Of a stretch of 64,000 nucleotides of DNA, positions 1-30,409 are shown in pieces (within the stretch, counting starts at the first letter, position 1; every line of letters begins with the position of its first letter). Source of the stretch: Hydractinia symbiolongicarpus. Taxonomy: Eukaryota. Position numbers and translations under genes: made by a program. The notes under the pieces are model-generated. The model saw only the letters and a list, made by a program, of their open reading frames with translations, ran no database searches and had not been told where the DNA came from. The stretch is taken from NCBI RefSeq assembly GCF_029227915.1, contig NC_079879.1, forward strand, positions 12,196,720-12,260,719. The letters run 5' to 3'.

Positions 1-43
1 TAACGAGGTTGGGTCAAGAAAATCTTGAAAGCAAGGCTACCAT

Positions 44-5700: not shown

Positions 5701-5924
5701 TTGACCAAATCGAACATATTTTCGTGCAAAGAATATCAAAATAGTACCTGCGTAGGGTAGTCCTATTTGAGAACATAACTTTTTAAAGCGGATTGTTTCA
5801 TCTTCAGTTAGTACATTGGAAGTTTGCCAAGAGCCATTCTAAACGAGAAATTATCAACATCACGGTTCATAGCAGTTACTAGAAAATAGTTCGCTGACTT
5901 CCCTGGCCATCTATTTATATTATA

Positions 5925-6035
5925 ATACCCGTATACGTCTGTCTGTCTGTCTGTCAGGAAAAATGGTACCGCAAGTAGTGGGAGGCACACAATGGAAAAA
6001 AAGAACGGGCGAAGCCGTTGGTTTTCCACGGGCCA
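5925..6035 (+). mobile_element. Solo short copy of the 'TAATA(G/C)CCGTAT(T/A)CGTCTGTCTGTC' repeat family (head plus 3' hairpin CCGTTGG-TTTT-CCACGG, ending ...CTAG)
   Basis: The head motif and 3' palindrome are shared with the copies at 35575-35700, 37736, 39163 and 41043. Confidence 0.5.
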
Positions 6036-9000: not shown

Positions 9001-10559
9001 TTCAGGTCCTTTTTGCGTTCTCTTTACAGAGCTTCTATTAAAAAATTACACGTGCTTGTTTTGCAAACATGAATACACCACAAATAAATAGGAAAAAGCT
9101 TCACAAAATCGAAAATAATAAGGCTTATGACAGCGTTGAAGTGTATAAATAAGAGCTTGGAATCTCTCGTTTTATCTTTTCCTACAAATACCAACCGATC
9201 GAGCGAAAGACCAACAAATAAAGAAATAAAAAAGTGGGGTCATTTGAATGCGAATCATTTTGGAATGGTCTCACGAAATTACCAAACACCCCTCATCCCC
9301 TATTTTTAAAATGTTTTCCATTCTTACCATCGTATAGTTACGTTCTTATCAAAACATCGTATGCTTGCTGACTGTGGAAAAATCAACTTAAGCAAAGGAA
9401 CAATTGGATTTTCAAAGGGATTTCTGCAATGAAAAAAATAATTTTGATGTTAAAGAGGATAAAATATTCTTTATCAAGTTTATAAAAAAATTTTATTTTC
9501 GTTCTTAAAATATTCAGCTTCAAAGATTTCTATGTGACCTTATGACATTATCATTGATAATGTCATAAGGTAGTAAGCTTAAATTATTACTTGAGATATC
9601 TTGCAAATTTACTTAATATTAAAACTTTTACGCAGTGTTAACTGAAGCTCTTGATGATAGTTTAAGAATGATTGCATCTTTAACTACAGGCAGAAATGTA
9701 ACGTCAGCATTTTTTAAAAATTTACATGACATAAGTTCCGGATTATAAATATTTAAATTTCTTGAATTACTTGAGAACAACAAAGGATTTAAAAAAACAA
9801 TTTTTTATTTTTCACAACATATAAAAATATCATTTTTAAAGCAGGAATCCTTTTTTTAATAAAATCAGCAACGATCATCTTATACAATTTTTTAAAAATA
9901 TGTTTGCACATTGATTCTATTGTGTATGTTTAAAACGCTGCTCAGAAAAAAATATAGAATATAGTTTTTTGACGATGTCATTAAATTACTAAGATGGTGT
10001 GAAATGCTATGCTAAAACATACAAGTTTTAAAACATCAAAGTTCTAGCGTTCCAAATGAAAAGGCTTATTTTGATAAAAAACTTTAGTTGATAAAATTTT
10101 TACTCCTTCTACAAAACAACAAACCCAACAACATCAAAACAACAATAAACAAGCGAAACTTCAATGGGATTACCTGGATGTAAAACATCAAAAAACTATT
10201 AAATCAATCCACAGAAAAGTTCGAAAATCCGTTCTTTTGAGTTGCTTGACTCATTTTGCCCACAAATCCGCCATTATTGGGCAAGATTTTTTTTTTAGAA
10301 AACCGATTTCGTCACATGCGTGAGTCTATTGTTCCCGGTAATTGTGCAAAACATTAGAGAAAACTAATAATCCAATCCTAAGAAATGTCGTAAGACCGTA
10401 TTTTTGGACCGTTTAGCCTATTTTGCGCATAATTCGACGTTTTTGAGCCGATAAGATTTTTTCTAAAAAAACTGAGCCGGTAACGAACGAACAGACACAG
10501 GTGATTTTATAGAATCTCACCTGGACCAGCTAGGTCAAAAAAGGCTCACTTATACAACT

Positions 10560-11100
10560 GAATCGGATATAAATGTAAAACAGTTAAACTATATAGGTTT
10601 GTCTGGTTCAGTGACAAAAAATAATTAAAACTTGCAACTTCCTTTTTCTTAAATTCAACTGAAACATGATCTGAAGAACACGCATCTTTTATATTGAAAA
10701 ATGCTATTCCAATATCTGAATTTAAAGTTTTGTAATTTGTAAGAATACAAATAAACACGGCTGCAACAAAGAATATACAAAGGTAACTTGTCACATAGAC
10801 ACAGTTCAACATGTGCAAATGTTGTAGATACATCAATGTCTTTAAGTTTATACTAGCACAAGCATTTGTAAAAGAGCAATACAACTAACCAAATACAGGT
10901 ACTGACTTCAGAGCACACTTCTTCTTTTTCTTCAACAATGTCTGTTCCTGTACTACCACTAAAAAAAAAATTAAAAAAGAGCTCACAAGATCTGTTAGAT
11001 ATAAAAACAACGTAGACAACTAATAGGTTATTTACCTTCGTCCATGATTGCTGGTGAATCTGAAAAGAAAATAGAATGTCAGACGTACACATCAAACCAT
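10560..11100 (-). repeat. Exon-less paralog of the polyproline-gene intron unit (homologous to 16447-16990 and 19130-19350)
   Basis: I observed a long collinear match, e.g. 'aaattcaactgaaacatga(t/c)ctgaagaa(c/t)ac(g/a)catcttttatattgaaaaat(g/c)ctatt' and 'acagttcaacatgtgcaaatgttg(t/c)agatac'. Confidence 0.55.
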
Positions 11101-11132
11101 GTACCCTTGATTTTTTTGTACTTTTATTAAGG

Positions 11133-11300
11133 ACTTTGCTGACATCAGCAAAGTTTTTAAACCCTTATATCTCATTAACCGCTCATCAAAAGCACATGAT
11201 CGTGTACATTTTCTTGATCAGCGCATTAAGCTCTACACAATTGAGGCAAAGTAAAAAACAGGTTCTAATTTTTTTTGCAGATGGGTTTCTGACATCATCA
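11133..11300. mobile_element. MITE-like element with terminal inverted repeats (..TGCTGACATCAGCA.. / ..TCTGACATCATCA..), a homolog of the 29772-30016 element
   Basis: About 170 bp of internal similarity to 29790-29990 (..ccgctcatcaaaagcacatgatcgtgtacatttt.. vs ..ccgttcgtcaaaagtacacaatcctacacatttt..). Both copies are bounded by TGAC(G)TCA-containing inverted ends. Confidence 0.4.
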
Positions 11301-13599
11301 AAATTCAAATGACGCTTCCTTTATCTTGCCTCAGTGGATTTTTCCAATGGCACTGTCGACTAGTTTTATGAATAATAAATAACCTAGTTTCCCTCACAAA
11401 AGTGCAGGAAATGTTTTAAAAAAAGTTTTCGATCTAACATCTAAAACAACAAAAATCAGTTCTTTCGGTATTCATAAAATTTTACACAAAATGTCAAAAA
11501 ACACCATTTGGAACGCGCACCAAATTTAGACGTTTCAGTATCTAGCGTGCAGTCCACCCCCATAAGAGTTTGTACAAATTATGAATAGCAGAACTTAGAA
11601 AATCTAATCAATGATGACCTATTTTTTCTTGTTTAGCGCTTCCTCTACAGTGCAAATTATATCGAATTGCACTGTGCGGAGTGCAAATATTTCTTAATTG
11701 CACTCTAGAATCTTAACTGCACTCTTTAAGGAGCGTCGATAATTTAAATATTTATTTTCTCGCGTTTTATGATAAGTCAAAAAAAAGATATCTCCACAAT
11801 GAATCCAACTAATTATAAATCGGGTAATAAAAAAATCAAAACATTGAAATTGACTTCCTGTGCTACTCTAACAAAAAAAGTTCATTGTGTGATTAGCTCG
11901 TAATCGAACGTTTGTTCGTGCAATTGGAAATAATCGAACTTGTAATTTTTTTGCTTTTTAAATTTATCCTCGTCCTAACGGACTCGGAAAATTAAAAGCA
12001 AAAAAAAAAATACTCGTTCGATTATTTTTAATTGCACTCATAAAAGTGGGATTACATATACTAATTTTACAAAAATAGTTTTTTCGTTATATTGCATATG
12101 GTTTTTTCTCAAAAAGGTGCAACATAAAATGAAAAAAAAAACTTTCAATTATATCATCTAAAACAAAAAAATCATTTCTTTTAATATATTTTTCTTACTG
12201 AAAAAAACCTTAATCCGTGAAATTAAATTATTTTGATTTGTTCTGACAAAACGTTTGAACAAAATATAAAAATTAATTGGTTAAAAAAAAACAAAATAAA
12301 AATTTGCAAATTTCAATTATTTCCTTATTTTTTTAAGTGAAGTTTGATCAAAAATGTCAAAAATGATAGTTGCGAGGAGTCAATTCTAAATAAAAAAAAG
12401 ATCAGTTATTTTAACAATCTGGATTTAGCCAAAACGGGTTTTCAGGCATTCTGATTGGCTTAGCACTCTTGAAGACGGGTCAATATGGAGCGGTATTGCC
12501 CGTCGTTAAGAAAAATGGCAGTGTAAAATGCAAACAAAAACGAAAAAACAAATTTCAAATAAAAAAATAAAATTTTAAATAATAAAAATAGCTAAAAAGA
12601 GGAATAACAACATAAACAGAGTGACAACAAAAATTGTTTCAAGGAGAAGAGGATTTTAAAGGGTTTTGTGCTAAATTTAGAGGTCTGTCACTTTCTCATG
12701 CTAAGAATTAAAAAAAAAAAAAAAATTAAAATAAAGCTTTTGATGAGGGACGTTTTCCTAACAAGAAAATCTCTGTAACGTAATAGTGAAACTATCGAAC
12801 TATTATCAGTGTACCTGAAAAAATAGAGATGTTTAGGAGGAGATTTAGTCATATTTTCAACTTTTTAGAGGACAATAGAGGACTTTATGGCTTTTTAAAA
12901 AAGAAGATTTTAAAGAAGGCGTGGCCACCCTGATAAATAGTTTGCTAGCTAACTGGGTATACTCGATCTTTACTTTAAAGTTAACTTTAAAGTAAAGTTA
13001 GTAAAAGTTAGTAAACAGATAACCAGTAAACTAAATATAAAGTGTAGACTTTTCTACTTCCTAGCTAGTTGTTGGATTTTATACTGCCTCCTTTCTGCAT
13101 CATCAACGCTGAAAAAGCACAAAAACACAACTTGTGTTTTAGTGTATGTTTGTATGCACGCTCTTGTAATGTTTTTATAAAAAATTATTTTGAAGGAATG
13201 AGTAAAAAAATGCAAAAAGAACAACGAAAAACGCACTAAAAAATAATTTTTTCAAATTTATCGGCAACAAATTTACAAATTATTAAAAAAACCTTTATAT
13301 AAAAAGCCTGTGTATTTTTAAAAACGATATCAGCTATATATATATGCCTATATATAGGTATATTGCTATATGGATACTTATATTTTAAATAGCCGCGCCT
13401 ACAAAGCTAAAATGTATATGTGTTTTATTAAGTACTGACCAAACTTCAACTTTGCTAAAATTAAGTGCCAAGCCCCGCTTTGAGGGAGCAATGTGACGGG
13501 GATTTTGTGCCTTGGACAACCATACTCACTCACACTAGGGAATTAATATATGACAATTCCTTCATATAATCCCAGACAAACAAGAATTCACTAAGCAGG

Positions 13600-14050
13600 A
13601 TATCTCTGAGTACTGGTAATCCTGTAAATTTTTCCACAGGCTGACGAATAGTATATAGATATTCGTGGAAGTTAAAAATTTAACCAATTATCAATTCTCC
13701 TTGTTTGTTTTTTGTTGTATACAAGAGTTTTTAAAACTGGTTTTAACTCCATATATTTAAAAGATTTTGGATGTAATTTTACAACAAGGACCATTGTTAT
13801 TAGCAACGCTTTTTCTTGACAGGGGCTTCCTTGCTAATGGCTGCTAGCTACCTATTTTGCCTTCTTGTTGTTCTTTGCAACTGTGGCAGTAATATTTTAA
13901 CAACTTCTGTAAAGATTTTTTAGAGTGGTCTGATATAAAACTATTTCTCTCCCCATATTGAAACACTAGGTATATGTCCTCCACTTCAGAATCAAAATAC
14001 ATACAAAATACATAAATTAGGACCTTCCAGAACACATTGGCCCAAAGAAA
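13600..14050. repeat. Intronic repeat, paralog of 15590-15990, same orientation
   Basis: The copies share '...cacaggctgac(g/a)aa(t/c)agtata(t/c)a(g/a)ata...ggttttaactccat...ctaggtatatgtcctcc...cagaatcaaa(a/t)tacat'. Each lies at the same position relative to the neighbouring FH1-like exon, which indicates a tandem exon-intron unit duplication. Confidence 0.6.
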
Positions 14051-14548
14051 ATATGATGCAGTGATAGCTACAACAAAAAAATTTCTCGTTGATCTCAACC
14101 TCCCTTTTCATAGTAAAAAAAGATTATTCTTGCGACATTCCTTATACCTTTTGGTACAAAAAGCAGTATTTTCTGTCAAAACAACAATGTGAAAATATTT
14201 TGTTACTAGGTATGTGTTTTCTTTGGTTTGATTGGTCAAATAAATTTGAACCTTATCAACTGACACATTGTTCTTCATACAATAGGTTACAGTTAACTTC
14301 AAGGTTTTAATTATATATTTTCTAAGTACGGGTATGAGTATTTAAATTAACTATGAAAAATTTATTAACCAAAAATGAGGCACATCAATTTTTGCGTAAG
14401 ATTATAACGCTGCAGATAAATCTAACTTTCATTACCTAAAACTGATGAGTGTTAACTGAGAAACTGTCTGTAAACGAGGTGAATTTCTTACAATGTTCAA
14501 TACAAGTAACACTGTCCCGTTGAATTTTACAAAATAATATCCTACTAC

Positions 14549-14959
14549 CTTTTGGAGGTGGAGGTGGTGGTGGTGGAGGTAATACTGTCTCAGGAAGTGG
14601 TGGTGATGGAAGTAATCCAGCTCCAGGAGGTGGTGGTGGTGGAGGTAATCCAGCTCTAGGAGGTAGTGGTGGTGGAGGTAATCCAGCTCCAGGAGGAGGA
14701 GGTGATGGTGGTGGAGGCAATCCAGCTCCAGGAGGTGGTGGTGGTGGAGGTAATCCAGCTCCAGGAGGTGGTGGTGGTGGAGGTAATCCAGCTCTAGGAG
14801 GTAGTGGTGGTGGAGGTAATCCAGCTCCAGGAGGTGGTGGTAGAGGAGGTAACCTAGCTCTAGGAGGTGGTGGTGGTGGAGTTAAATTAGCTCTAGGAGG
14901 TGGTGGTGAAGGGAATCTAGCTGCATAAAGTGTAAGTTCAGGTAGAAGATCACCATCAC
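14549..14959 (-). CDS. Polyproline (FH1-like) repeat exon P6: ...[43 protein letters not shown]...[11 protein letters not shown]
   Basis: Acceptor is cctaaag|GTGATGG and donor is CCAAAAG|gtagtagg. Length is 411 nt, phase 1 to 1. It contains seven or more GAGLPPPP(P/L)PP repeats, which are profilin-binding-like motifs. Confidence 0.65.
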
Positions 14960-16130
14960 CTTTAGGTAAAATAAAACGATTTTAAATGAAATAGTATCAA
15001 AAAAGATTTTTTTACTTCAAAAACGTATTTAAACCACACTTGACAAATAAGTACTAAGAATCACACTGGTTATACACTGTTTACACTGTATACAAGCCTC
15101 CATAATAATTACTGAATATACTTTTAAGATGCTGGGCTTTAAACATAACACTGTGTACGAGGTTGTTAAAGCTTCAGATATATTAAAATCTCCTTGATGA
15201 TCTTTAAGATTCCAGGGCGGACTTTATAAATTATAAACAAATTTATATAGATTTTATATACAACCTCTACTTTATAGCGTTTTAGAGGTTTTTGAAAAGT
15301 ATATAAAAAAAACCCGAGGTTTTTTAATTTGCCCTTAGGGTGCATTGAAAAAAAGCCTAGTGGTTTGTGGAAAAACCCTTTTAAAACAGAATTGTTTTAA
15401 ACATCTCATCATCTAAACATCATACAATTAAAATGTGGTAAATATTAAAACGTGATATACCTATTACGGGAGAAAGAACGCAATACACTTGCCTTTTAGG
15501 AGTCTTTTTAGTAATAATTCTGTCCTAATTCAATTACTTCATGCTAACAGGGAAACAAGAATGCACAAAACACTGGAAAATCTATGAATTTTTCACAGGC
15601 TGACAAACAGTATACAAATACTTTTGAAAGTTGCAGGTTTTACCTTCTTTCAGTTGTGACATACATAATTGTTTGAAACTGGTTTTAACTCCATGTTTTA
15701 AGAGATTTTAGACTAAAATGTAATTTTACAGCAGTGGCATTTGCTACAAATAATGCTTTTTTTTGCTGGTGGCTACCAGATACCTTTTTTCCTCTTGTTG
15801 TTATTAGCAACTCTGGCAGTAATGGTCTTAAATTTTCCAAAAAAGGATTTTTTTAATGGGGTCTTGTGTAAAACCTTTCTAGCCCCATATTTCAATACTA
15901 GGTATATGTCCTCCTTCTCAGAATCAAATTACATTAGGCTATCCTTAGGGTTTTCAGAACCCATTGGTCCTAAGAAAATATGAATTAGCGATAAGTATAT
16001 CCAAAATTTCCTTAAATTTGATATCACACCTCCTGTTTTGATAGTTAAATAAGTGTATATGTTAAAACGTTCTACACAAGTATTTTACATGTTTTGTAAC
16101 TTTACATTTTACAAATTAATATCCAATTAC

Positions 16131-16268
16131 CTTCTAGAAGTGGGGGTGGTGGAGGTAATCCAGTTCCAGGAGGTGCTGGTGGAGGTAATCTAGCTGCAGG
16201 AGGTGGTGGTGGAGCCATTTTAGCTGCTAAAAGTTGTGGTGCAGGGAGACCATATTCTGCAGCTGTGC
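16131..16268 (-). CDS. Polyproline repeat exon P5 (GTAAEYGLPAPQLLAAKMAPPPPPAARLPPPAPPGTGLPPPPPLLEG)
   Basis: Acceptor is ttttataaag|GCACAGC and donor is CTAGAAG|gtaattgg. Length is 138 nt, phase 1 to 1. Confidence 0.6.
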
Positions 16269-18217
16269 CTTTATAAAATAACTAAATTTACATTAACATG
16301 CCAGGTTTAGCATCTAAACTTTCAAATATCAAAATTCTAGCATTTTAATAATTCCATAACAACAAACTTAGCAACAACAACAAAAAATTACTTCTATAAC
16401 TGGACCCCATATGAATACAAAATAGATAGTTAAATTATACAGTTTTGTTCGTCTCAGTAAAAAAAAAAAAAATCAAACTTCCAACTTCCTGATTCTTAAA
16501 TTCAACTGAAACATGACCTGAAGAATACACATCTTTTATATTGAAAAATCCTATTCTTTGGATTTAAAGTTTTGTAATTTGTGAAAATACAAATAAATAC
16601 GACTAAAATAAGGAGTATGCAAAGGTCACATGATACAGTTCAACATGTGCAAATGTTGCAGATACAACAATGTGTTTAAGTTTATACTAGCAGAAGCATT
16701 CATTAAAATGCAACACAACTAACCGATCATAGGTTCAGGCATGTCGAAACACAGTGAATGCTTTGTAGAACTTGACATATACCGTGACTTGAACATTTTT
16801 AGGGATCTCCAAATCCGTGCTACATTAAATTAAAAATAAAGTTCACAGGGTCAGTCAAATAAAAAAAATAACGTAGAGAAATGAAAAGTTATTTATCTTA
16901 AAAGATTGGCAGTGAATCTAAAAAGGAAACAAAATGCCAGATATACATATCAAACCATATGACCTTGCTTTAAATCGACGAAATATATACAGCGTGACTC
17001 ATATTCAGCTGAATTCTGCTTGTTCTGAATAACCCAACAGTTAACCCAACAGTTATATATACTGAATAACCCAAAAGTTATATTAAGTACATTTTGAAAG
17101 TAAATGAAACAGTTTTCGAATTATTAAAGACAGGTAGATTCAGGAAATTAAACAAGTTCATAAGCTTAGCTAAAAAAGAGCTTAAAAAATACGTAGAATT
17201 TTAATATATATAGTCTTAATAAAAAGGATACATCAAGCAGGGACATGTTTGGATTTCTACGATTTGATCATAGGTGCTTCGTTTTTCTAATGTGTTTTGA
17301 TTACTGCATTTGTGAAACCCTGAGTACAAGGTTGTTAAAACTTTCTAAGTAGATTAAAATCTCCTTAAGGATTCGCGAAATTCAGGGTGGTAAATTTTTT
17401 GTACAAGCTCTGCCTTTAAGGGCATATGTTAGAAGAATACTGTTGGGTTATTCAGAACTTGCAGAATTCAGCTGAATATCAGTCACGCTGTTGTTCAAGC
17501 ATTTGTGAGAGAAAAAAATACTGAATTTAGGGATAGGAGAATTTGCATAGATGGAGTACCCAACCAACAGTGGGAAAAATTATCTTATATAATATATGAT
17601 ATGGAATTTGTTTCACATATTTGTAATGTAGTGCACAGCTTAATTGTAAAGAAGATGGAAAAGAGTAAAGAAGCTGACAGTGTATCATTGTCTGAGAATG
17701 GTTAGAAGATTTTATAGTACTTTTGTCTGAAAAAATTGTTCTCTTACAGGTAAATGATTCACTGTAATAGAATTTTAAGATAATAAGATTTTAAATTGGA
17801 AGCATAATTGGCAAAATCTTGACCTATTTGAAAAATTTAGTGATAGCAATAATATCAGATGATTAAAAAAGTAATTAAATCCAATATTTTAGGTTGGTTT
17901 ATAGTTGCGTCCTAAAAAAAAGCCTAGTGTTTTGTGGCACTGGGAGATGTTTAAAAGGTTAAAAAAAAAAGCAAAACTTAAAATATACAATTTAAAATTG
18001 GTAAATATTTTAAGTAGTTACTAATAGTTTTAAGTAAATCAAACTTCAAAATCAAAACACATTAGACCATCCGTAACCTTTTCCAGAACCCATTTTGTTG
18101 TAAGAGATGTAGCAACAAGTGTAACCAAAATTCACTCCTCTTCATTTTTACAGTAAAAAAAAGGGTTAACATTTTTCACACAAGTATCACATTTTTTGTA
18201 TTTTAATATCGAACTAC

Positions 18218-18322
18218 CTTTTATATGTGAGGGTGGTGGAGGCAATCCAGTTCCAGGAGGTGGTGGTGGTGGAGGCAATCTAGCTTCTTGAAATTGTGGT
18301 GCAGGTAGACCATCACGTTCAG
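18218..18322 (-). CDS. Polyproline repeat exon P4 ([36 protein letters not shown])
   Basis: Acceptor is tattttag|CTGAACG and donor is ATAAAAG|gtagttcg. Length is 105 nt, phase 1 to 1. It is a paralog of P5. Confidence 0.6.
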
Positions 18323-18601
18323 CTAAAATAAAACGATTAACAATGAAAAGGTAAATAGGTCGAAAATTAAACAGGTTAATCCAAATTATTCATGGTGTTA
18401 ATTGGAGTAGGCCTTAAAACCATATATAAACTAGGGACAGTTCTGGATTTTGTTACTAGGTCTTCTTCTATGATTTGATGATGGTATTTGTTATATTCAT
18501 CTTATTAACACATGTCTATGGTTTTGTTAATTAATTCTCATTGCAACTATGGTTTTGTTGAATAAATTCCATTGCAAATCGAGTAAGGATGTATCACTTG
18601 C

Positions 18602-18667
18602 CTTCTTCAGGTGGTGGTGGAGAAAATCGGGCATCTAGAAGCGGTGATGATAAACGGTTTATTGCAC
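18602..18667 (-). CDS. Polyproline-gene exon P3 (GAINRLSSPLLDARFSPPPPEEG), which has a GC-AG intron
   Basis: Acceptor is gttttag|GTGCAAT and donor is GAAGAAG|gcaagt. A stop codon follows immediately if the exon is read through, so the GC donor is needed to keep the frame. Phase 1 to 1. Confidence 0.5.
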
Positions 18668-20261
18668 CTAAAACAAAACGGTTTAAAATAAAATATAATA
18701 TTATACAAATTCTTAAGTCACACTTTACAAGTAAATACTATTAAAGTTGTGACATTTTGATGACATATGGTATGACCCATTTATATAAAAAACATTTTCA
18801 AAACGTTTTGGTATCTATTGATTGTATTGTGTAGAGTATGAAACACTGATCAAAATGATTACATAATCATGTCCTTTCGAAACATGATTAGAGATATGCA
18901 AGCTTTTGATGACATCATTAGAACATTGGTTTAATTATTTTAATTCAAGCAAGAATTAATAGAAAACAAAGAAGCGTTTATCCGTGACTTTTTTATCAGG
19001 AATTTGATGCTGGTCAATTACTTTTTATTTAAGTTCAGTGGATAAAAGTGTACATCAAAAGACTTCTTATGCTGTGCATTTTAACACTCAACAACAACAA
19101 AACAACTACACAAAACTACTTTTATAACTGAATCCAAAAGAGATAAAAAATAAATAGTTAAATTATACAACTTTGTCTGTTTCATTGACTAAAACCATTT
19201 TGTGCATTGCAAACTTGAACATTTCATTTTTTTTAAATTTAAATCAAACATGAAATTAAATGAGTACAATAGTATACTTATTTGTCACAGAGTAATGGTT
19301 CAATGTGTGCATGTGATGCAAATTTATAGCACAGACGTTGGTAAACACAACTAACTGTATATTGGTTTACATTCATATTCAACTTCATTATATGGTGACT
19401 GTTGTAGAGAACTTGATATAGAACCCAACTTTGTATTAGTTTGTTTAAAGGAACATAACGATTCCTGTTTTAGTGCTAACTTATTAGGACAGTGTAGACA
19501 CTTTACGAAAATTTGTCTGTTCGTAAACGTTTTCCTTGAGAATATTGTAAAGAATAAAGCTGTTTTGGACATTATCCTTACTATTACTAAAGTCCAACAG
19601 CCGACAGAAAACCACAAAAGCTTATCTCCACTGAAAATACTTTTATAGGATTGTATTTATTTATTTATTTTTTTAACGAACTGTTCTGATTTATGTGTGC
19701 ATGATAAAATAGGTTTAAAAAGAGGAGGTACATTCAAGCAATGTTTATTTAAATTTTATCAAAGTTATATTGTTTATGTGCTCATTTAAAGCCCATCTAT
19801 TGTGCTGCTTTTGTTGTATTTTTGCATGTCTAGAGTTAGACAAGTGTTTTAACGAGAAAACAGGAAAAACGTTTTAATATTTTCCAAACCTAAACTTTTA
19901 AAAAATATTACTGCAGTAGGGGGTACATATAAATAGATAATTCTTTCTCCAAAGTTAATGAATTTTCAGCACAAAATCAGTGTTTGGTGGCTATTGTTTC
20001 TTTCATAGAACAAAAGAGAATATTATAATTATTTATTCCTATCTTTAATTACGGGTTATTTGTTAAGTAATTTCCTTTTATTTCCTTACATTGCTTTTTC
20101 GTCTATATTTTACCATAATTCCAAAAAGTACACCTTACATTAAGCTAATGTTCCTTATTTTCTACATATTCCACCAGAAACAATCAACTTCAAAACAAAA
20201 GAGTTTTTACCGCTAGAAAAATAATTTATAATGAGAAGAATAAGAAACTGCGGAGACGCAC

Positions 20262-20429
20262 CTCCTACTCTTTTTAAACTTAGGTTGGATGTAGCTAAAG
20301 TTTTTTGAGGTAGGGGTTGTAGAGGTAATCTAACTTGTAGAGGTAGTGGTGAATGCTGATCGTCTTTAGGTGGTGGTAAAGGTAATGGAGCTTTAAGACC
20401 CAGTGGTGAAGGTAGACGATTTCTTGTAG
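20262..20429 (-). CDS. Polyproline-gene exon P2 (ATRNRLPSPLGLKAPLPLPPPKDDQHSPLPLQVRLPLQPLPQKTLATSNLSLKRVGG)
   Basis: Acceptor is tattttag|CTACAAG and donor is GTAGGAG|gtgcgtc. Length is 168 nt, phase 1 to 1. Confidence 0.55.
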
Positions 20430-21239
20430 CTAAAATAAAACGATTTAAAATAAAATTGTATTATCCAATTTTTTAAAAAACATTCCATTTTTATAAAAAG
20501 AACGTCACGCTTTACAAGTATATGCTAATAAAGTTGTGACATTTTTATAGCATTAGGTACCACTCATTTATATTAAAACATTATAAAAACTTCTTGTTTA
20601 TCTTTTGATTATATTGTGTAGAGATTGGAACACTGATCGAGATGATGCACAGGACTAATTTTGTTTCCATGTGGTCTCTAGTTACTGATGGAGAATATGA
20701 TCTCACCTATTTTTAACCGTTCCTAAATTATATGACCCTAAGTTAAAGGGTAATTTAATGACCTCACAAATGATTTTGACACCCATCCATTTTAATTTGT
20801 TGACATTAAAATAATACATCAGATCAAACAGGTTTTCTGCAACTATTCCTACCCTGCTGCTTCCGTTTGTAATAACGAAGGCAATATTAAGTATTCTGAT
20901 AAAGCTATCAACTTCTAGCTTTAAAAGTGGGTGTGTTGACCAAGTTTTCAAAATCGCACTAATTTTTGGTTCAAGGTCCTAGCTAGGCAATCATGAAGAA
21001 TTGTTTGTTTGTCGTGGGGAATTTCATGAAATTCTGTCTGCCTCTAAAATTATTGGCTTGAAAATATTATACAAGATTTAGCCTTGTAGCTGTCCAATGT
21101 CTTTAAATAAAGATATTGGCCCATGAGCACTTCTCCAAAACCTAACAAATGAAGGGATATGAAATATAACCGAATAATGTAAAATCCTAAATCTACTGTA
21201 AACATTGGCCAACTGTAATTTGACAAGTGTGTGTAGTAC

Positions 21240-22165
21240 TTACATAGAAACATCATTCATCATCATTTTCAGCTTAACATATGTTCTTCATGCTCATATG
21301 GGTTGGACAGGTACATCAATGACATTCTGATCTAGACTGTATGAGCTATCTAGACTGTTTAAACCCAAATTTACCTACATCAAGTCTATCCTTTTTAACT
21401 CCTGGCAAATCTTTTTCATTCTACTTATGAGCTTATCCCAGGAAATGTCTTTAGATTATTCAGTTATCGTACTTTTCCAAGTGCCTCAACCTTCTTCCCT
21501 CGATAACCTCTCTAACACTACGAATACTTGCTCCTTATCTCATCTGAACTCTCTGTCTTCCAGACTGGTGTTACATAGCCATGTAATTATTCTTATAATA
21601 CCACGTTATAAACAGCCAAGATCTTCCTTCTTCATTGCCCATGTCTTACTATCACACATCATAAATAACCTACCTGTCACCTCAACGGACACGACTCTTA
21701 TGGTTAACAAAAAAAGTAACTCTCTGAACTTGGTCTAAGCAGAACCTATTCTGCAAGTAACACTTTTATTAAAACCCTTTCACTAACCAACATATTACCT
21801 AAGTAACAGAAATTCTTAATCATCTCCAACAAGTCACTGTTGCACATCCTCACAGCTGAAAATTCTCTTTTGTCTCTAATCTCACCCTTGCAACGGTTAC
21901 ATACAAACTGAATGTGAGCAACCCCTTTTCTCCAAACTCCACAAGAGCACTTTCCAATCACAAGTTCAAACTTAGCTTCAATGCTTCCAATCATGTCTTT
22001 AGACTTTTCTGCGTTCACTTTCAAGCCTTTCTCTTCTAGTTTGCTTCCACTGCTTAAAATTTTCCACAAATTCTTCCATAGTCTTAACTTTGCATCTAAA
22101 AACTTCAATGAAAACCCCCTCATAAACTTCATTGACAGCGCTTTTAAGACAACACAAAACAACAA
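21240..22165 (-). mobile_element. Non-LTR retrotransposon (LINE) 3' fragment: RT C-terminal end plus Cys-rich tail (..GLKVNAEKSK..CSCG..C..C..NFCYLGNMLV..) and 3' region
   Basis: The minus-strand ORF 21746-22165 carries the LINE RT terminal 'GLKVNxxKTK' motif followed by a 'FCYLGxML' block. The downstream ~350 bp (21240-21600) recurs at 28140-28500 and 63880-63960. Confidence 0.45.
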
Positions 22166-24008
22166 TGGACTAAGTACAGATGTACGCCAACATTTATGCT
22201 AAAATCATCACTAAGTGAATTGTAAGTTCTGACACGAATTCTAATTTTACTGTACATAGACTGTACCATAATTTTCTCTATGTGACCCAGGAAATTTTTC
22301 GAAATCTACAAAGACATGCTTTCTCTTTCCTTAATACTTATACTTAAGTTTTCTTAGTAAGTATAATACAGCTGTAGTTTTGCGCCCTGGAAAAAATTCA
22401 AATTTCATCCTATCTATATCAATTCTTTTACTTAGTAACCTCTCAATCAGTCTTTTAATATATTTTATTACTTTATAACCAACTTCAACCCTCTGTAGTT
22501 ACCAATGTTTTCGGCATTACCCTGCCCTTGAAATAACTTACTATTACACTTGACTGCTAGTCACTCAGAATAACACTATCCCTATCTCATTGGCAAAACT
22601 TGTAATAAACTCAACTCCAGTATATCAAAACACTTTTACAATCTTCGCAACAATACCTGCAGCCTTGCCAATTTTTATTTTCCCAATTGCCCCACCTACC
22701 TGTTCTGTTATGTCCTGGCCTGCATAGTCATGCAATTATGCTCATTTCACTTAAATTCTTTGTCAAGTGAACTTTGTACGAACCAAGAGAATATCATCAT
22801 TACTTATACACTTGTCACCTACAACATTAATCTACATTTGCTTGCTATGTTAAAACGTCTTTACCAAGCGCTTTTGGTTAGAAACTTCAAGTTCTATCCT
22901 GCGTTTTATCACTATTAAGGTTATGGGTTGTAGGTATTTATACAAAATAATTTTTATTAATCTTAATAATCAATTCAGTTTTTTTCATTATAAAGTTTAT
23001 TCATTATTCGTTTTGTGAGCACCCTAGTTTTCAATTGAGGAAAAAAAACTTTCTCTAAGTTTAATTGCACCCTACTAAATTGATTTTTTTGTTTATTCAG
23101 GTATTTAAATATGCTGGCTTGCATTTTAGTAAAACTTTTCACGCTTTTTTTAATTGATAGGCAACTGCAAATATGAGTTAAACTTTCACATTTGAGGGTG
23201 TATTCTCTATCTTTGTGCAACAAATCCAGAAAAACTAATGATCCAATTCTGAAAAAGTTGGTTATGAATGCATAGATGGATTGAGTAAGGTCAATTTATA
23301 GGCCCTCACTTGTGCCAAGTAGATCTAAAAATGCATTTTTTTGTCTCTCAGTAAATTTGATGTTATTTATCAATACAGTGCCATAGCGAAAACGTTGCAT
23401 TCATAAAGGTAGATTAGAAAAAAAGCTAGTTAACTGATCACTTTACAACCAAGAGACTGCTGGTGAAATTTGTCAGCATTCTTTTATAATATCTATCTTT
23501 TGACTCCTAGCTAATTGACTGTGATAAACTTCTTGAAATATTAATACAATGAAAAAGAACATAGACGTTTCGGATTAAAAGGTGGCTGAAATTTTGAATT
23601 AATATTGTAAAGTAGTTCACATTACATAAAAAAAAAGTAAATTTTACCAAGGCCTAGACAATGCTTAGTGATAGTTTTACTAAGAATTTGTAACTGCATA
23701 AGATATGATGCTGCTTATTATTTTTAGGAGGATTAGTAAATTTAATTTTTATATACTTACGTTCACGCAGTCAGGTTTTGCATTGCCAAAACTTAAATAG
23801 TAGAAGATATTTAATTCTCCAAAATTATATACTCAATATTCCTACATCTTTTTTGCATTGTATCTCAAAGATCATCCTGATTTTTGATTAAGTTGACTCA
23901 CAGGTCATTATATGAGTATTTAACGGTCATAGCACCATTGTTTATAAATTACTTCATAATTGTCTAATTAGAAAACAGAAGTAAACAGTGAACTAAGGAA
24001 TGCGTTAC

Positions 24009-24203
24009 CTGATAATGCTGCAGCAGGACGAGATTTTAGAGGTTGTGGTAGAGACTTTTTAGCTTTCGCAAACCGTGATCGAAGCAGGCCCTCTCCTCCA
24101 AGTGGTGTTGGATGACAACCATATTTTGTAGTAAGTGGTGGAGGTAATCCAGGTGGTGGTGGTGAATATGTAAGATCTTTCTCAGGTGGTAGTTTGGTAT
24201 TGG
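24009..24203 (-). CDS. Polyproline-gene exon P1 (ANTKLPPEKDLTYSPPPPGLPPPLTTKYGCHPTPLGGEGLLRSRFAKAKKSLPQPLKSRPAAALS)
   Basis: Acceptor is attttag|CCAATACC and donor is TTATCAG|gtaacgca. Length is 195 nt, phase 1 to 1. It joins in frame with P2 through P6. Confidence 0.55.
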
Positions 24204-26289
24204 CTAAAATAAAAATTTTTAAACTTCTGATCCATTTGAAACTGCCTTCCAAGTCACACTTTCTAAATAACTGATAGCATAGATGTGATTCATTACAGAG
24301 GGATAGATGTCTAAAAGGATATTTGTAACAAGCAACAAAATTACCAAATCATTGAGAGATGACTTTAACAAAATTACCAAATCATTGAGGGATTACTTTA
24401 ACAATATTACCACTTATCAGTTCAGTTACAGTCATTGTTTCGAATGTGATTGAAATCATTTTTGGCTATTTATTGGTCGAGGAGATAATTAGAGGATCGA
24501 AGTGCAAAAATGATATTTTTAGAAGTTGATAGGAAATAGTATTGATAAAGGTTTCTCTATTTATAGTATGTATAGTTTCTTTCACTCTTCCTGCTATCCC
24601 ACAGAACTTCTGTGATATTTTTATTGTCGAAGTCAATAATATGATAATTCTGTAGTTGTCAAAACGTAGCCTAGTATAAATTTTCTTTTTTATTATAATA
24701 ACTATATTATTCGAAGATATGTGGTAATATTTGTAAAGTTATTAAACAGCAATATGGTTGATGTGAGATTGTTAATAAAAACTAGATTAAAAATTGTAAG
24801 ATATTCCACATTACAAAGTCAAACCGGGGAGAAGTCAGAAAATACTACTTGGTGCAAGTCCCCAATTGTTGCATAAGCAGATTCATCTTATATTCATGTG
24901 ATGAGAAATAATATATTGATTAAGATGACTGGAATTGACCAGAATAAAAATACAATACTGTCAGGTATATTATAATAATTTATTAAACACAACATTCTTA
25001 TGTATGTTGTCATGGCAACAATGGGGCGCCACTTTTAGACCTTAAAAATCTTGAAAATGATAAAAAATATAAAAAATTACACAGCTTATATTGAATTTGT
25101 AATGAAAAATTGAAGCTGAAATTTGTTTACGTACATATCTTCTATACCATAATTTGGTACAAAATAAGGTAAACTGCTAAAAATAATTGTGCAGAACTCT
25201 AAAGCAGGGTTTACTGGATTTAAATAAAAGTTGATGCTAATATCAGCCGCAAAAATCTAAAAAATCTTAAGACAAAGCCACATTTTTGTCAAACTACCTA
25301 AATTACAAATTATGCGACGTTGTCCTTGATATTCTTTAGTGCTGAAACTTGTGAGAACTACATCTGAACTCTGCACAGTTGGAAGCTAGGGAATCATGAC
25401 TGGGAACTGAGAACAATGCAAGGAAATAACATCAGTAGTGCAAGTAAAAGAAGAGGAAGTTTTTACTAATTTTTCAATTGGATTTTGAGGCACCCTACAA
25501 TAAAAATTAAATATGATGTCTGATGCTGGGGAATGGTCTCATCTAGATAATATTTATTTTGAGATTTTAAGCCATCTAGTAACATGCCAGCACTGCAGAG
25601 GCACGTTTGTTTTTAGTGGCTATATACATTTTGCTATCTACAAGTAGCTATATACATTTTTTATGTAGCTAGCTAGCTAGCTACCTACCAGGGTTTACAA
25701 AGAAATTCTGTCATTTTAAATAAGGAATTTTGATATTTTCTGTTACTACCTTTCTATGACAGTAAACAGTCAAGACTTAAGTTTAAGCTATATAAGGTAA
25801 ACTGTGTCATACGTATGGTGAGTATGTGTCACATATGCAGTGGAGCGTTTACAGCATAACATCTTTTTGAAAACTAACATTCGCAGCAGTTATGATGAAA
25901 CCTATTTTTACTTTGGAAAAGCAAATACAGTTGTTTAGCATTTTATTTGCAGAATACGTTTTTGTGGATGTATAAAAAATAATTGTGAGTGGAACTAGGT
26001 TAAGCTATTAGTACAGATAAACTAAGATGCAGATTCGGGTGGATACAAAAAAAAACTCTCTGAAAACTGTGAAGATTTGGCACTGTGCTGTCCAAATTCC
26101 TATTTTCTCTGTGCTACCTAAACTTAGGGCATTTAATGTTTTCTGCACAGGTCTAAAATTACTGACGACAGAAAATGTCAAAATTTTATTCTTCATTTAT
26201 GACATCATAATTTATGCAGCATTAAAATGTGAATATCTTGGAAACGAAAATAGCTTAATCTTATGTTAACGTTATGTTTGTCCTACTTA

Positions 26290-26408
26290 CCTTTGCCAAT
26301 TTCTTTTCTCATTATTGAGAATGGACTTGACATTGTGAGTATACCCCTTTTTGATTTAGCCTCGTCACCTACATAAGAATCCTTCTGGCCCATTCCAACC
26401 ATCACACC
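26290..26408 (-). CDS. Actin-derived exon A3 ([39 protein letters not shown], matching actin residues ~42-80)
   Basis: Acceptor is ttcttag|GGTGTGATGG and donor is GGCAAAG|gtaagtagg. The '[17 protein letters not shown]' DNase-I-loop block is identical to actin. The distal part diverges but aligns residue for residue, with the W of ..VTNWDD retained. The exon ends in phase 2. Confidence 0.6.
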
Positions 26409-26499
26409 CTAAGAAATCAAGAAGCAAAACATAGGAATAGAAAAAAAAACTTAGCAAAAACTCAACGAAGTAATTGATGTAATGTTGTGTCATAGTCAC

Positions 26500-26568
26500 C
26501 TGATGTCTAGGTCTTCCAACTAATGTTGGCATAACAACGCGTGGTTTTTTCTCCCCAGAAAAACCAGC
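26500..26568 (-). CDS. Actin-derived exon A2 (AGFSGEKKPRVVMPTLVGRPRHQ, matching actin '[23 protein letters not shown]')
   Basis: Acceptor is ttttatag|GCTGG and donor is CATCAG|gtgacta. The exon ends exactly at the conserved actin codon 41/42 intron position. Confidence 0.65.
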
Positions 26569-27559
26569 CTATAAAATACCAGATATGCTTTAATATAATG
26601 CTTTATATCTTAGACTTTATTAACATAAATAAATACAACTTTATTCATTACTTCACTAAACAGCATTTTTAAATTGATAAAGAATTAAATTGTTTGAAAA
26701 TCATTTTCGAAAATGTTTAACTGGTAAAAAGACATTTTGAAAAACACCAACCTGCCTTCAAAAAAATGACCTTTTTTACAAAACTACTTTAAAATGACTA
26801 CTTTTACTAAATTACCACTGTTCCAAACTCTTTCATGAAACAGATTTAAAATGTAATACCAAACTCGAGTGTGATTTTAAATTTTATGACTGACGTAGCT
26901 GTGCACTAAACGGCAATTATAGCAGTAGGCATTTATGTACTATAACAACATCTCTGGGAGATTTACTCATAATTTTGATTGTATCTTTGTATTAATCTGA
27001 CAAGCTTAAAAGTTGATTTAAAAAGCAAGAATCTGAAAAGTTGATCCAAGAGTCGAAAATCTGATCTGAGAAGCTGAAAGGCTGATCTGTAAAATTAATA
27101 GTTTTAATTGTTGATTGGCCACAAAGGTACTGCCATCATATCATAGAAATGAAAGATAGCCACAGCCTTAGATAGAGCCTTGTGGCATTATTTTTTTTAG
27201 ATATTGCTTTAAAAAGGTTTGGCGACTGACAAAAAAAGAAAATATTAGGATTTCTCCATCATCTGCATTTTTTAATTGAATTCAGAAGATTTTGAGGCAC
27301 CCTACATTAAAAACTAAATATGATGTCTGATGCTGGGGGATGGTCTTAAAATATTTTTTTTGCATACTTTGCTCTTCTTTAACATTTATTTACATGTGAC
27401 ATGCTTCTACATTATACAGAATTGTCATTAGGCCACAGAAACAAAAAATACAACACATTCTGAACAATTTTTGGTCATGTATTATAAAACAAACCTTCCT
27501 GAAAGCAATATCAACTGTTTTAAAATTTGAATTCTTATTTAAAAACAAAAGGTACCTCA

Positions 27560-27586
27560 CCTTCATTTCATGCATACCAGTATCCA
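27560..27586 (-). CDS. Actin-derived exon A1 (MDTGMHEMK, matching actin 'DNGSGMCK'), possibly extending to 27604 (VKGAVI...)
   Basis: An in-frame ATG sits at the complement of 27584-27586. The donor is GAAATGAAG|gtgagg. A possible upstream acceptor is tttcctag|GTTAAAGG at 27604. Confidence 0.45.
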
Positions 27587-28139
27587 TTATTACAGCTCCT
27601 TTAACCTAGGAAACATAACTGATTTTGAATTTGATACGAAAAATATAATGATATAATGATTCTTGAAAGAAACTTTTACTTCCTAATGAAATTAAAATAT
27701 TTAATTCTTTTCAACTGACTTTATAGCCATTTGATTTTGTCAGGCCAGGAAATTATGGTGGGGAAGGATGTTCATTTAACCGAATTTAACCGAGGGTTCA
27801 CTAGGGTACGGTTCATTGAAACCATTTCGTTGTTAGGATAACAATGGGGTAACAATGTACAAACAGGGTAACAATTACTGAAAATACAGTAGAAAATTTC
27901 TGTAGAAAATGACTGACACAAGTAAATCCTAAAAAAATATTCATAAAATGGTTAAATTTTATTGATTTTTTTTTTTTTTTTGCTTTAGCCTTATATTATA
28001 GCATAATTATTTTTATTTATTTTTATTAAGTCCAGTGTTAATCCGTTGCTATTTTTGTTCTTTAGAGTGACAAATATAATTAGCTTGTGCTTCATTCTAT
28101 TAGGTAAGTGACAAAGAGAGATCATACTGGTAAGCGTTC

Positions 28140-28500
28140 TATTTATTTACATCATAATCATCATCATCATTCTCGGCTTAACGTCCGTTTTCCATGCTAG
28201 CATGGGTTGGATGGGGTATATTAAAGACCCTCTTCCAATCTGATCTAGACTGTGTTAGATCTAAACTCAACTTCCTCTGTATAAGTCTGTCCTTATAACC
28301 TCCTTCCAAGTCTTTCTCGGTCTGCCTCTGGGCTTTGCCCCAGGAACTATCACGTCTCTACACTTTTTTACCCAATTATCCCCCTCCATTCTTTCAAAGT
28401 GCCCCAGCCAATTCAATCTTCTTATCTGGATAACATCTTTAATTCTATGGATACTTAGCCTGCTTCTTAGCTCATCTGAACTCTTTCTGTCTCTCTTACA
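28140..28500 (-). mobile_element. 5'-truncated LINE 3' end, same family as 21240-21600, lying in the PARP4-like 3' flank or intron
   Basis: Collinear match 'catcatcatcattctcggcttaacgtccgttttccatgctagcatgggttgga...' vs 21240 'catcattcatcatcattttcagcttaacatatgttcttcatgctcatatgggttgga...'. An (ATG)n-like tail sits at the minus-strand 3' end. Confidence 0.45.
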
Positions 28501-28566
28501 AATAGAGAAAAATTATTTCAATTTTTTACACAAAATAAAATTTTAATCTGACCTCCACCTTATCCA

Positions 28567-28790
28567 TTAGATTATTTTTTTCTTCTACCAAAAATGATGC
28601 ATCCAGATCTTCACAATTATCATCTACCAAAAATGATGCATCCCTATCTTCAGAATTATCATCCCAGTCAACAGAACCATAAGAGACACTATCAGAGTCA
28701 GAGTCACTAACTGGGACAGAGCCACAAAATTGATAATAATTTCCTTCTTTTTCTTCTTCTTCTTCAACCTATTAAAAAATTTAGATAAAA
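28567..28790 (-). CDS. Unassigned acidic candidate exon (VEEEEEKEGNYYQFCGSVPVSDSDSDSVSYGSVDWDDNSEDRDASFLVDDNCEDLDASFLVEEKNNLMDK) with an internal ~36-nt tandem repeat
   Basis: An open frame is flanked by an ag|GTTGAAG acceptor and a GATAAG|gtggag donor, both phase 0. I cannot tell whether it belongs to the PARP4-like 3' end, the actin-like gene, or the polyproline gene. Confidence 0.25.
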
Positions 28791-29771
28791 CTAAAAATGC
28801 ATGCCTCAAATGCTGATCGAAAAATTAAACGTGACAATGTCAACAACATTAATTTAAGGTAGGAGTAACCCTTTTTAGCTGTTCAACAATCTGTTGTTAT
28901 CTATACAAATTTCCTTTGTTATTTCCCGAAAATTTAGTCCTTTGGGCACAGAAACAATTTTGTTTAATTTTTTAATTTGCTGCATCAGCAAATATAGTCA
29001 GTTATAGACATACAACATAAAAAGAAAAGAAATAGCTTTTACGACTTCCAAAGTTTTACGGAAAACTTTTATATTTTAAAAATTTTTTACAATAGCCTTT
29101 TGTTTGTTTTGAAAGAAATCTCATCAGCATACTGCATCTAGGTGCTGTCAAAAGACAATATTTAAAATCAAAAAAAATTTCCACACACCTTTTTAAAGCT
29201 GTATGATTTAAAAAGCTTGTGTTAAAATTTTAAAGAGAAACGAAAATGCTATCAGCGTTTTCAGAGTTTATTGTTACTTAATGCACCATCTTTGCTGTTA
29301 ATAATGTTTCTCTTTATTAATTAATTCATTCATAATTTCTCAAGTGTGTAGCTCTAAAGCTATATTTGACAGAATTAATTAGTTATTTACAGCCGAGAAT
29401 GATGAATGATGATGATGATGACAGAATTGTTGAAGCTAAATATTTTTTATGAAAGATAAGTATTACAGCTATAAACTTATGAAAAGTGTGTGATAACAGA
29501 AAAAATATGGATATATAGTCTGAAAATAACCTTTTGTAACTAATTACGTGAAAAAATATTTCTGATTTTTAAAAGGGTTACCGCCACCTTAATGTTAATA
29601 CCTTAATTCAAATTAACAATTACAATGTACTTTTAGCTTTGAGACCAAATAACTTGAAAATTAGTGGAAAAAACATACGTCATCTACTGCATGGTTAACT
29701 AGAGACAACCTGAGACTACAACTAGGCCAATTTTCTAAACCTTGGTACTCCAGTCTGTTTAAAAAAGGACA

Positions 29772-30016
29772 GGTTGATGACGTCATCAGAAGATGTTCAA
29801 ACTCCAATACCTTTGTAACCGTTCGTCAAAAGTACACAATCCTACACATTTTTTAGCAGCGTTTCAAACTCTACACATAGGAGCAACGGTTCTAAATATG
29901 CTAAGGCATATTTTGCTCCCACATGTGCATTATTTTGTACTTAAGAGCTGCTCTGGAGTTCAGGGACAAAGTAAAATTTACTTTATTTTTCACCAATGAT
30001 GTTTAGTGACATCATA
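29772..30016. mobile_element. MITE-like element (homolog of 11133-11300) with termini containing the CRE-like palindrome TGATGACGTCATCA
   Basis: Left end is 'gttgatgacgtcatcag' and right end is 'tagtgacatcat'. Internal similarity to the 11.1-kb copy. Confidence 0.4.
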
Positions 30017-30232
30017 TCTATAGCATGTTGAAGGATTTTTGTGTTTAATTTGATTGTTTAACTTAATTTCAACTAATTTGTATGATATTTTTCACTGTGT
30101 GATAACTACTACATATAATAAGTCCATAAATTTTGATAACATATTTGATAGACAATTTTCTTTGTTTGCCTCGTTCTATACACTTGTACAAGCATCAAGT
30201 TTGTATAGGTGAAAATATAACAGTATTTTTAA

Positions 30233-30409
30233 TTAACTCACAATTTCTGACTCGACTTCGAATGCCATGTAGGATAAGATATCTATGTTTTCCATCGCAA
30301 CAAGTTCATCTATTGTTGGTGCTGTGTCATCTTTACTTTCAACCCTCTGAATAAAAAAACTACCTTCTTCATCTTGTTCGAAAATGAATCTACTAGAATA
30401 CTCTAAATG
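30233..30409 (-). CDS. PARP4: PARP4-like terminal coding exon (HLEYSSRFIFEQDEEGSFFIQRVESKDDTAPTIDELVAMENIDILSYMAFEVESEIVS*)
   Basis: A NAGNAG-type acceptor ttagag|CAT is required to stay in frame. The continuous ORF ends at TAA, the complement of 30233-30235. An alternative GAAATT|gtgagt donor at 30242 could extend the CDS. Confidence 0.5.
   Translation of the reverse strand, partial: HLEYSSRFIFEQDEEGSFFIQRVESKDDTAPTIDELVAMENIDILSYMAFEVESEIVS

Follow-up and report, generated by a model that had tools for sequence, protein, structure and literature searches.

The polyproline exons of a Hydractinia PARP4-like gene: an exon-modular variant of the PARP4 linker

A 64,000-nucleotide stretch of the Hydractinia symbiolongicarpus genome (NCBI RefSeq assembly GCF_029227915.1, contig NC_079879.1, positions 12,196,720 to 12,260,719 of the forward strand; hereafter the window, whose own numbering is used throughout) carries an array of minus-strand exons that encode polyproline tracts resembling the FH1 region of formins. 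Judged by sequence, these polyproline exons are internal exons of an annotated PARP4-like gene, a vault-type mono-ADP-ribosyltransferase. Very probably they are coding exons, some constitutive and others cassette, that build most of the disordered linker of the predicted protein and whose tracts would act as docking sites. For the single locus the question has a firm and unremarkable answer, an annotated PARP4-like gene in place of a new actin regulator. The linker, exon-modular, FH1-like and bearing an actin fragment, is a so far undescribed form of the disordered linker known from PARP4, and a literature search found no paper describing PARP4 linker cassettes.

Identity of the gene

The window is AT-rich (~32% GC), intron-bearing eukaryotic DNA. 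A homology search with a 1515-aa approximate gene model returned XP_057306534.1 as its top match, at 3044 bits. This 1984-aa protein is titled "protein mono-ADP-ribosyltransferase PARP4-like isoform X3" of Hydractinia symbiolongicarpus. Each of its exons maps to the minus strand of the window, from 47707 to 4634, at 100% identity, and the translation of six polyproline exons is present in it verbatim. Between 30816 and 4634, every pair of neighbouring exons has one single GT/GC...AG junction that reproduces the protein. The boundaries of the polyproline exons are therefore exactly those of the original prediction, which had proposed six minus-strand exons of 66-411 nt, all in phase 1-1 and in frame, with one GC donor (gcaagt, after 18602). 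Together, the exon mapping and the single junctions place the six exons inside the PARP4-like gene.

Pfam finds BRCT, PARP, VIT, VWA and Actin domains within this single protein (Table 1). The PARP match scores 66 bits, while PARP_reg, at 24.5 bits, lies slightly below its cut-off of 26.8 bits. Motifs of the H-Y-E type (FFHASE, GIYFAT and DDEYCIY) are present, with the triad assigned by eye. A scan of stop-to-stop open reading frames (ORFs) puts the PARP4-type exons on the same strand as the polyproline exons and upstream of them. A composite of the upstream exons matches proteins named PARP4 and, in the PDB, the full-length human PARP4 chain 11jf_P (E=6e-67). A human PARP4 sequence, used as a lead only, aligned colinearly by tblastn over residues 37-1216 at 47.0-30.2 kb, and nothing in the window matched past residue 1216. 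This C-terminal miss is due to divergence, since profile methods do detect the domain. From 30.9 to 24.2 kb, the chain of splice phases leads from the PARP4-type exons (phase 0) through an acidic exon and three actin exons to polyproline exon 1 (phase 1).

The 3' end of the gene encodes a domain resembling the MVP-interaction domain (MVPID) of PARP4. The C-terminal 150 residues of the Hydractinia protein (exons 7543-4634) align with other PARP4 C-termini. Compared by hhalign with a profile of nine other PARP4 C-termini, from which hydrozoans were left out, they match with 95.8% probability (E=7.5e-9), and the family profile matches the MVP-interaction domain of human PARP4 at residues 1574-1706 (E=1.6e-29). 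In phmmer, the single C-terminal sequence gave no PARP4 domain match, and its match to an Hcp1 protein (E=0.002) is regarded as chance. A terminal acceptor at ~10012, giving Ala-stop, was ruled out, as the annotated gene runs on to 4634.

These assignments revise much of what had been supposed about the surroundings of the array. The original prediction had seen no FH2, WH2, EVH1 or other catalytic domain upstream or downstream, and had left the gene as formin-like, WASP/WIP-like or a lineage-specific proline-rich protein. The absence of FH2, WH2 and EVH1 holds in Pfam, but catalytic PARP exons do lie upstream, among BRCT, PARP_reg, VIT and vWA exons at 47707-30242. The 3' end is the MVP-interaction-like domain at 7543-4634 and contains no FH2, and the exons belong to a PARP4-like gene.

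Table 1. Features of the window (positions in window numbering; residues and Pfam matches refer to XP_057306534.1)
Feature	Position	Strand	Length (nt)	Phase	Basis or remarks
Whole PARP4-like gene	4631..47707	minus			Start codon 47707; last sense codon ends 4634, then stop
N-terminal and central exons	30242..47707	minus			Pfam
BRCT exons	47707-46770	minus			Pfam BRCT_2 and BRCT, residues 2-90
PARP regulatory and catalytic exons	44374-41751	minus			Pfam PARP_reg 280-360, PARP 382-554
VIT exons	35569-34308	minus			Pfam VIT, residues 615-727, 125 bits
vWA and remaining ITIH-like region exons	33260-30242	minus			Pfam VWA, residues 866-1021
Acidic exon	28553..28768	minus		0-0	VEEEEEKEGNYY...NNLMDKVE
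Actin N-terminal fragment, three exons	27605-27561, 26568-26500, 26408-26291	minus			Final exon shifts phase 0 to 1
Polyproline exon 1	24203-24009	minus	195	1-1
Polyproline exon 2	20429-20262	minus	168	1-1
Polyproline exon 3	18667-18602	minus	66	1-1	GC donor
Polyproline exon 4	18322-18218	minus	105	1-1	2 LPPPP motifs
Dead paralogue of the 24-nt exon 11059-11036	16917-16897	minus			Pairwise alignment; donor GT changed to AT
Extra exon between exons 4 and 5	16819-16724	minus	96	1-1	ARIWRSLKMFKSRYMSSSTKHSLCFDMPEPMI; in all seven isoforms
Polyproline exon 5	16268-16131	minus	138	1-1
Polyproline exon 6	14959-14549	minus	411	1-1	8 LPPPP motifs
Symmetric exon	11059-11036	minus	24	1-1
Symmetric exon	10958-10890	minus	69	1-1
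Optional micro-exon	8759-8742	minus	18	1-1	Encodes KLQRKC
Symmetric exon	7983-7921	minus	63	1-1
C-terminal exons, MVPID/MINT-like domain	7543-7413, 5838-5748, 4956-4631	minus			hhalign and family profile
Separate SH3 gene	56969-61844	plus			Three SH3 domains (Pfam), Pro-rich exon 60158-60565, coiled-coil exon; CD2AP/SH3KBP1-like architecture
Two WSC-domain-like ORFs	1002-766, 361-50	minus			Pfam WSC E=3e-4, below cut-off
Retroelement debris	28512-28181, 22198-21252, 35000-36340, 48414-48955				PARP4-like introns and upstream of the gene

The exon array and its history

The array is longer than the six exons first described, which left out the exon at 16819-16724 and four more after exon 6. Counted together, the symmetric phase 1-1 exons number 11 in a row, from 24203 to 7921, and the probability that 11 lengths are all multiples of 3 is about (1/3)^11 = 6e-6. 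Any array exon can be duplicated, lost or skipped without a break in the frame. The six polyproline exons have polypyrimidine-AG acceptors throughout, and GT donors apart from the gcaagt of exon 3. No canonical splicing of the micro-exon is possible in the window sequence: its acceptor would have to be AA, or the donor of the exon before it TT.

Proline makes up 22-53% of the individual exon peptides, 37% overall and 53% in exon 6. As originally reported, the peptides carry a repeated polyproline motif that opens with G/R, and the starts of the exons share a conserved LP.P..L.A(R/K) element. Within exon 6, a 33-nt tandem repeat occupies 14560-14908 in 10.4 copies (85% match). The protein as a whole holds 11 [FLWY]PPPP motifs, in the form LPPPP.

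RefSeq lists seven isoforms, X1-X7, which differ by whole symmetric exons. Exon 2 (56 residues) is skipped in X4, and exon 6 (137 residues) in X5 and X6. The micro-exon is included in X1, X2, X4 and X5 and is missing from X3 and X6. X2 differs in the acidic exon, where it takes a donor lying 6 nt upstream. X7 (P0347) reads through at the donor after 16724 and ends in ...EPMIVIL, without exons 5 and 6 and the MVP-interaction-like domain, and is a predicted non-anchored form. At least in the models, the symmetric phase serves in-frame cassette splicing.

Comparison of 9-25 kb with the whole window by blastn recovers the paralogous intron segments reported earlier, at 68-79% identity. The segment at 10536-10890 resembles 16381-16724 (79% over 360 nt, E=2e-84), both copies beginning at the donor of their own exon, and 13612-14122, downstream of exon 6, resembles 15572-16053, downstream of exon 5 (68% over 528 nt, E=2e-40). 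Two further pairs are 16340-16456 with 19076-19184 (74%) and 18604-18859 with 20363-20646 (72% over 285 nt). The rest of the window holds no further copy of any of these segments, in keeping with local duplication. Pairwise alignment of the units at 10.5-11.1 kb and 16.7-17.0 kb runs on through their exons and takes in a dead copy of the 24-nt exon (Table 1); a multi-exon unit was therefore duplicated, followed by divergence and partial loss. The unit at 10560-11100 had been described as exonless. Polyproline exons are indeed absent there, yet two other exons, 11059-11036 and 10958-10890, are coding. The alignments, the blastn pairs and the in-frame skipping isoforms bear out the earlier picture of a symmetric, FH1-like array grown by tandem exon-intron duplication. 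Growth of the array came from local duplication of exon-plus-intron units, joined by slippage of the 33-nt repeat within exon 6.

Ahead of the array, the three actin exons encode a fragment spanning actin residues ~8-70, D-loop included. Pfam Actin scores 48.8 bits on the predicted protein (cut-off 27; profile positions 5-65 of 410), and in tblastn residues 42-70 are 86% identical to actin. An actin module sits at the same position in PARP4 of sponges, cnidarians, a hemichordate, echinoderms and molluscs. From sponges to echinoderms, the D-loop stretch and its flanks are nearly invariant, and the DNGSG nucleotide-binding loop is decayed. Four related metagenome-derived loci fetched via VIT-vWA fragments (L001-L004) all have an actin-like ORF on the same strand, downstream of the PARP4 ORFs. 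In L001-L003 the actin-like sequence is an ORF pair, the first member of which continues from an acidic region in L001 and L002. Phase continuity, conservation in L001-L004 and the RefSeq protein rule out a pseudogene or an intron-nested gene. The top match of one homology search, P0074, is a duplicated-actin artefact.

On a further, eukaryotic contig (L005; GCA_029980185.1, JARPMW010000227.1, 9950-12895, plus strand), an 826-aa ORF comes after an actin-like one and encodes FG repeats, polyproline, a P-stalk-tail-like SDDDMGYGLID and a pair of histone-H3-tail-like peptides (KAPRKQLATKAARQSAPATGGV). ORFs resembling ubiquitin precede the actin-like ORF, and no PARP domain was seen within 10 kb.

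The linker across animals and its possible roles

The array sits between the ITIH-like (VIT-vWA) region and the MVP-interaction-like domain. This position is that of the exon 30 region of mammalian PARP4, which is disordered and positively selected. The mammalian linker exceeds 300 aa, is encoded by one exon, shows recurrent positive selection and was proposed as a host-pathogen interface (PMC4038475). It connects the ITIH-like region with the MVPID, and the suggestion has been made that viruses cleave or modify it (PMC10450202).

Vertebrate PARP4/vPARP (human Q9UKK3; PDB 9bw6, 9bw7, 11jf) and the Hydractinia gene share their domain order: BRCT, a helical and an ADP-ribosyltransferase domain with H-Y-E, VIT-vWA, a long disordered linker and the MVP-interaction domain. 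In both, the linker is the variable, fast-evolving part. The human linker is encoded by one large exon (exon 30) and is Ser/Pro-rich without polyproline runs, whereas the Hydractinia linker has at least 11 symmetric phase-1 exons, an actin fragment, FH1-like repeats and alternative splicing.

Polyproline runs occur at the same position in PARP4 of Hydra, Rhopilema, Mytilus (mussels), oysters, Anneissia (crinoid), Lineus (nemertean), Patiria (sea star), Diadema and Xenopus. Their repeat units differ, with PFSFAPPPPPPPL in Xenopus, MQSFGAPPPPP in one EukProt sequence and AGFAGASRGGQLMADSPPPPPP in Lineus. A shared linker position with different repeat units indicates repeated lineage-specific expansion. 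The Hydractinia linker is the richest in LPPPP, with 11 motifs against 0-3 elsewhere. A paralogue on the same 35-Mb contig (P0195) is ~85% identical in its N- and C-terminal domains, and FG-like repeats (GFCFGNVAPQIASSGTVSK)n replace its actin and polyproline segment.

Other linkers hold pieces of other proteins. Among 68 PARP4 homologues, precomputed Pfam hits in the linker comprise the actin profile at positions 2-66 in 26, ubiquitin in 10, HSP70 in 9, 14-3-3 in 4, synaptobrevin in 3, EF-hand pairs in 3, and Snf7 and the ribosomal P-stalk tail in 2 each. Pfam run on nine selected homologues places such hits in the linker, and the copied parts in these nine proteins include the C-terminal half of 14-3-3, the substrate-binding part of HSP70 and the SNARE motif of synaptobrevin. 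Some gene models in the set of homologues with cassettes (P0198-P0245) may be fused predictions.

The favoured account of the Hydractinia linker is a docking platform. The tracts would form polyproline-II helices bearing the 11 LPPPP motifs and would offer multivalent binding to profilin, Ena/VASP EVH1, SH3 and WW modules. Together with the adjacent actin D-loop fragment, they would determine the partners recruited to the PARP domain or to the interior of the vault, with splicing and duplication tuning the number of docking sites. The sole experimental hint comes from a proteomic screen, in which the VASP EVH1 domain pulled down mouse Parp4 and Mvp, an association lost with an inhibitor of the FPPPP site, although the authors describe it as unverified (PMC9581539).

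Formin FH1 regions of the mDia1 type consist of repeated G-x-G-(L/I)-P(5-9) tracts, whose ligands are profilin, SH3 and EVH1. The Hydractinia tract resembles them in composition and motif; repeat length and spacing are similar, and the same ligands are predicted. It differs from formins in lying inside an ADP-ribosyltransferase, without FH2, GBD/DID or DAD, and Drf_FH1 is unmatched. With WASP, WAVE and WIP, the Hydractinia gene shares a proline-rich region adjoining actin-related sequence. The actin-related element in Hydractinia is a copy of actin itself, whereas that of WASP-type proteins is an actin-binding motif, and WH1, WH2, C and A were not found in the window.

Several points weigh against a PARP4 linker that docks such partners. 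The transcripts are RefSeq predicted (XP_) models. At E<=10 the tract matches no Pfam family, Drf_FH1 included, and low complexity prevents a homology test. Binding by profilin, EVH1 and SH3 is read from motif resemblance alone. Other PARP4 linkers mostly do without [FLWY]PPPP (0-3 per protein), so any conserved function may not depend on the motif. At the C-terminus, human Arg1689, in PRLELG, is replaced by Ser in both Hydractinia paralogues (YTSCHMGY), while Hydra has Arg (HTRLGLGY); the substitution is a hint of changed MVP binding. The MVP residues that contact PARP4 are reported to be conserved in vertebrates only (PMC12280208), and for invertebrate PARP4 residence in the vault is putative.

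A special case of the docking platform is that the linker might be bait. The polyproline tract and actin fragment would mimic host proteins and lure pathogen effectors or toxins onto PARP4 or into the vault, making the linker the fast-evolving recognition region of an innate immune sensor. This is possible, if doubtful. Bacterial factors that target the actin D-loop include the proteases protealysin and grimelysin, which cleave Gly42-Val43, and the ACD toxins, which cross-link Lys50. Partial copies of hub proteins at the same linker position in invertebrate PARP4 speak for it, as does an actin D-loop that stayed nearly invariant while the nucleotide-binding loop decayed, and the positive selection, proposed host-pathogen interface (PMC4038475) and suggested viral cleavage (PMC10450202) of the mammalian linker point the same way. 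Against this, the cassettes have no experimental tie to any pathogen factor, low-complexity polyproline need not stem from a formin, whole domains such as ubiquitin, EF-hands and Snf7 are equally able to recruit host partners, and some gene models may be fusion artefacts.

Extended beyond Hydractinia, the bait reading becomes a tentative proposal, offered with clear reservation: the non-vertebrate PARP4 linker might be a swappable array of host-protein mimics (baits or recognition modules), with the Hydractinia polyproline exons as one cassette. The cassettes counted here are the actin D-loop, FH1-like polyproline, ubiquitin, 14-3-3, HSP70, the synaptobrevin SNARE, calmodulin-like EF-hands, Snf7, the P-stalk tail and FG repeats. 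Through them pathogen effectors, or else defined host partners, would reach the ADP-ribosyltransferase or the vault, and symmetric phase-1 exons, tandem duplication and exon skipping would keep the polyproline cassette evolvable. The integrated decoys of plant NLRs and the tripwires of NLRP1/CARD8 similarly place a variable, host-mimicking segment, inserted or disordered, in a conserved scaffold of immune or enzymatic function, a likeness that may hold as an analogy of mechanism only, with no homology.

The linker might instead be a passive spacer, a stiff, extended and protease-resistant tether between the catalytic/ITIH-like body and the C-terminal anchor, with no specific partners. Linker length and repeat unit vary widely among lineages while the position is kept, isoforms change the length by 56 or 137 residues, and human cryo-EM shows long disordered regions bridging the PARP4 domains (PMC12280208), all of which a tether would accommodate. 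A pure spacer would have no need of the conserved actin fragment alongside, and the repeats keep a defined G/R-led motif at 85% DNA identity, each exon opening with the conserved LP.P..L.A(R/K) element. A tether of this kind is accordingly considered unlikely.

Two further explanations concern whether the exons are real and whose they are. Pseudo-exons or an over-extended prediction, in which low-complexity CCN repeats would keep the frame open incidentally, could draw on the computational nature of the models (XP_) and on exon 6 being open in other frames too. Such an artefact is very improbable, given that phase is kept and splice sites are good across 11 exons in a row, that the MVPID-like domain is in frame only through these exons or via skips of whole symmetric exons, and that Pro-rich repeats recur at this position in the orthologues of Hydra and other animals. 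An independent formin-like or WASP/WIP-like actin-regulator gene, suggested by the FH1 resemblance and by an ORF of a related metagenome-derived locus (L003, 19240-20472) with Pro-rich repeats followed by WH2/C/A-like motifs, can be dismissed on the strength of the annotation, as the RefSeq isoforms join the array to PARP4 exons on both sides (as given for all seven, X7 ending after 16724), the chain of phases is unbroken, FH2, WH2 and WH1 are absent by Pfam from the sequences listed below, and a tblastn and motif scan of the window for a VCA region was negative.

The searches behind these negatives covered several sets of sequences. Pfam found no FH2, WH2 or WH1/EVH1 in minus-strand ORFs of >=30 aa at 1-14548, where the weak WSC match was the sole hit, in XP_057306534.1 (P0194) or in the tract, and no C or A motif or SHD N-terminus of WASP/WAVE/WIP in the ORFs, the protein or the tract. 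The VCA-like peptide of L003, searched by tblastn, and a six-frame regex scan of the window found no counterpart. In L003 itself, the plus-strand ORF is 411 aa long, begins 3.5 kb past the actin-like exons and carries Pro-rich repeats with a P20 run; WH2-like (DLLSITFSTLKLLKTP), connector-like (FILARRVAV) and acidic-tryptophan (NEEWSDDEEW) motifs follow, and the whole resembles the VCA region of WAVE/WASP.

The wider cassette pattern is of greater interest than the single-locus finding. The function of PARP4 and the vault is a question decades old, and positive selection in the disordered linker of mammals was until now the sole evolutionary clue. Here the homologous linker is an exon-modular array, and invertebrate linkers hold pieces of actin, ubiquitin, 14-3-3, HSP70, SNARE and calmodulin-like domains as well as polyproline. 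The pattern across invertebrates suggests that the linker may be a variable recognition or bait region. If the cassettes do serve recognition, they name concrete partners of PARP4, and Hydractinia, Hydra and oysters become tractable animals for asking what the enzyme and the vault are for.

Neighbouring genes and repeats

On the plus strand, beyond the start of the PARP4-like gene, lies a separate SH3 gene (Table 1). As the two WSC-domain-like ORFs lie past the stop codon of the PARP4-like gene, they are probably part of a different gene that runs off the window. The retroelement debris includes mutually similar RT-tail-like ORFs and a weak copia-type gag match.

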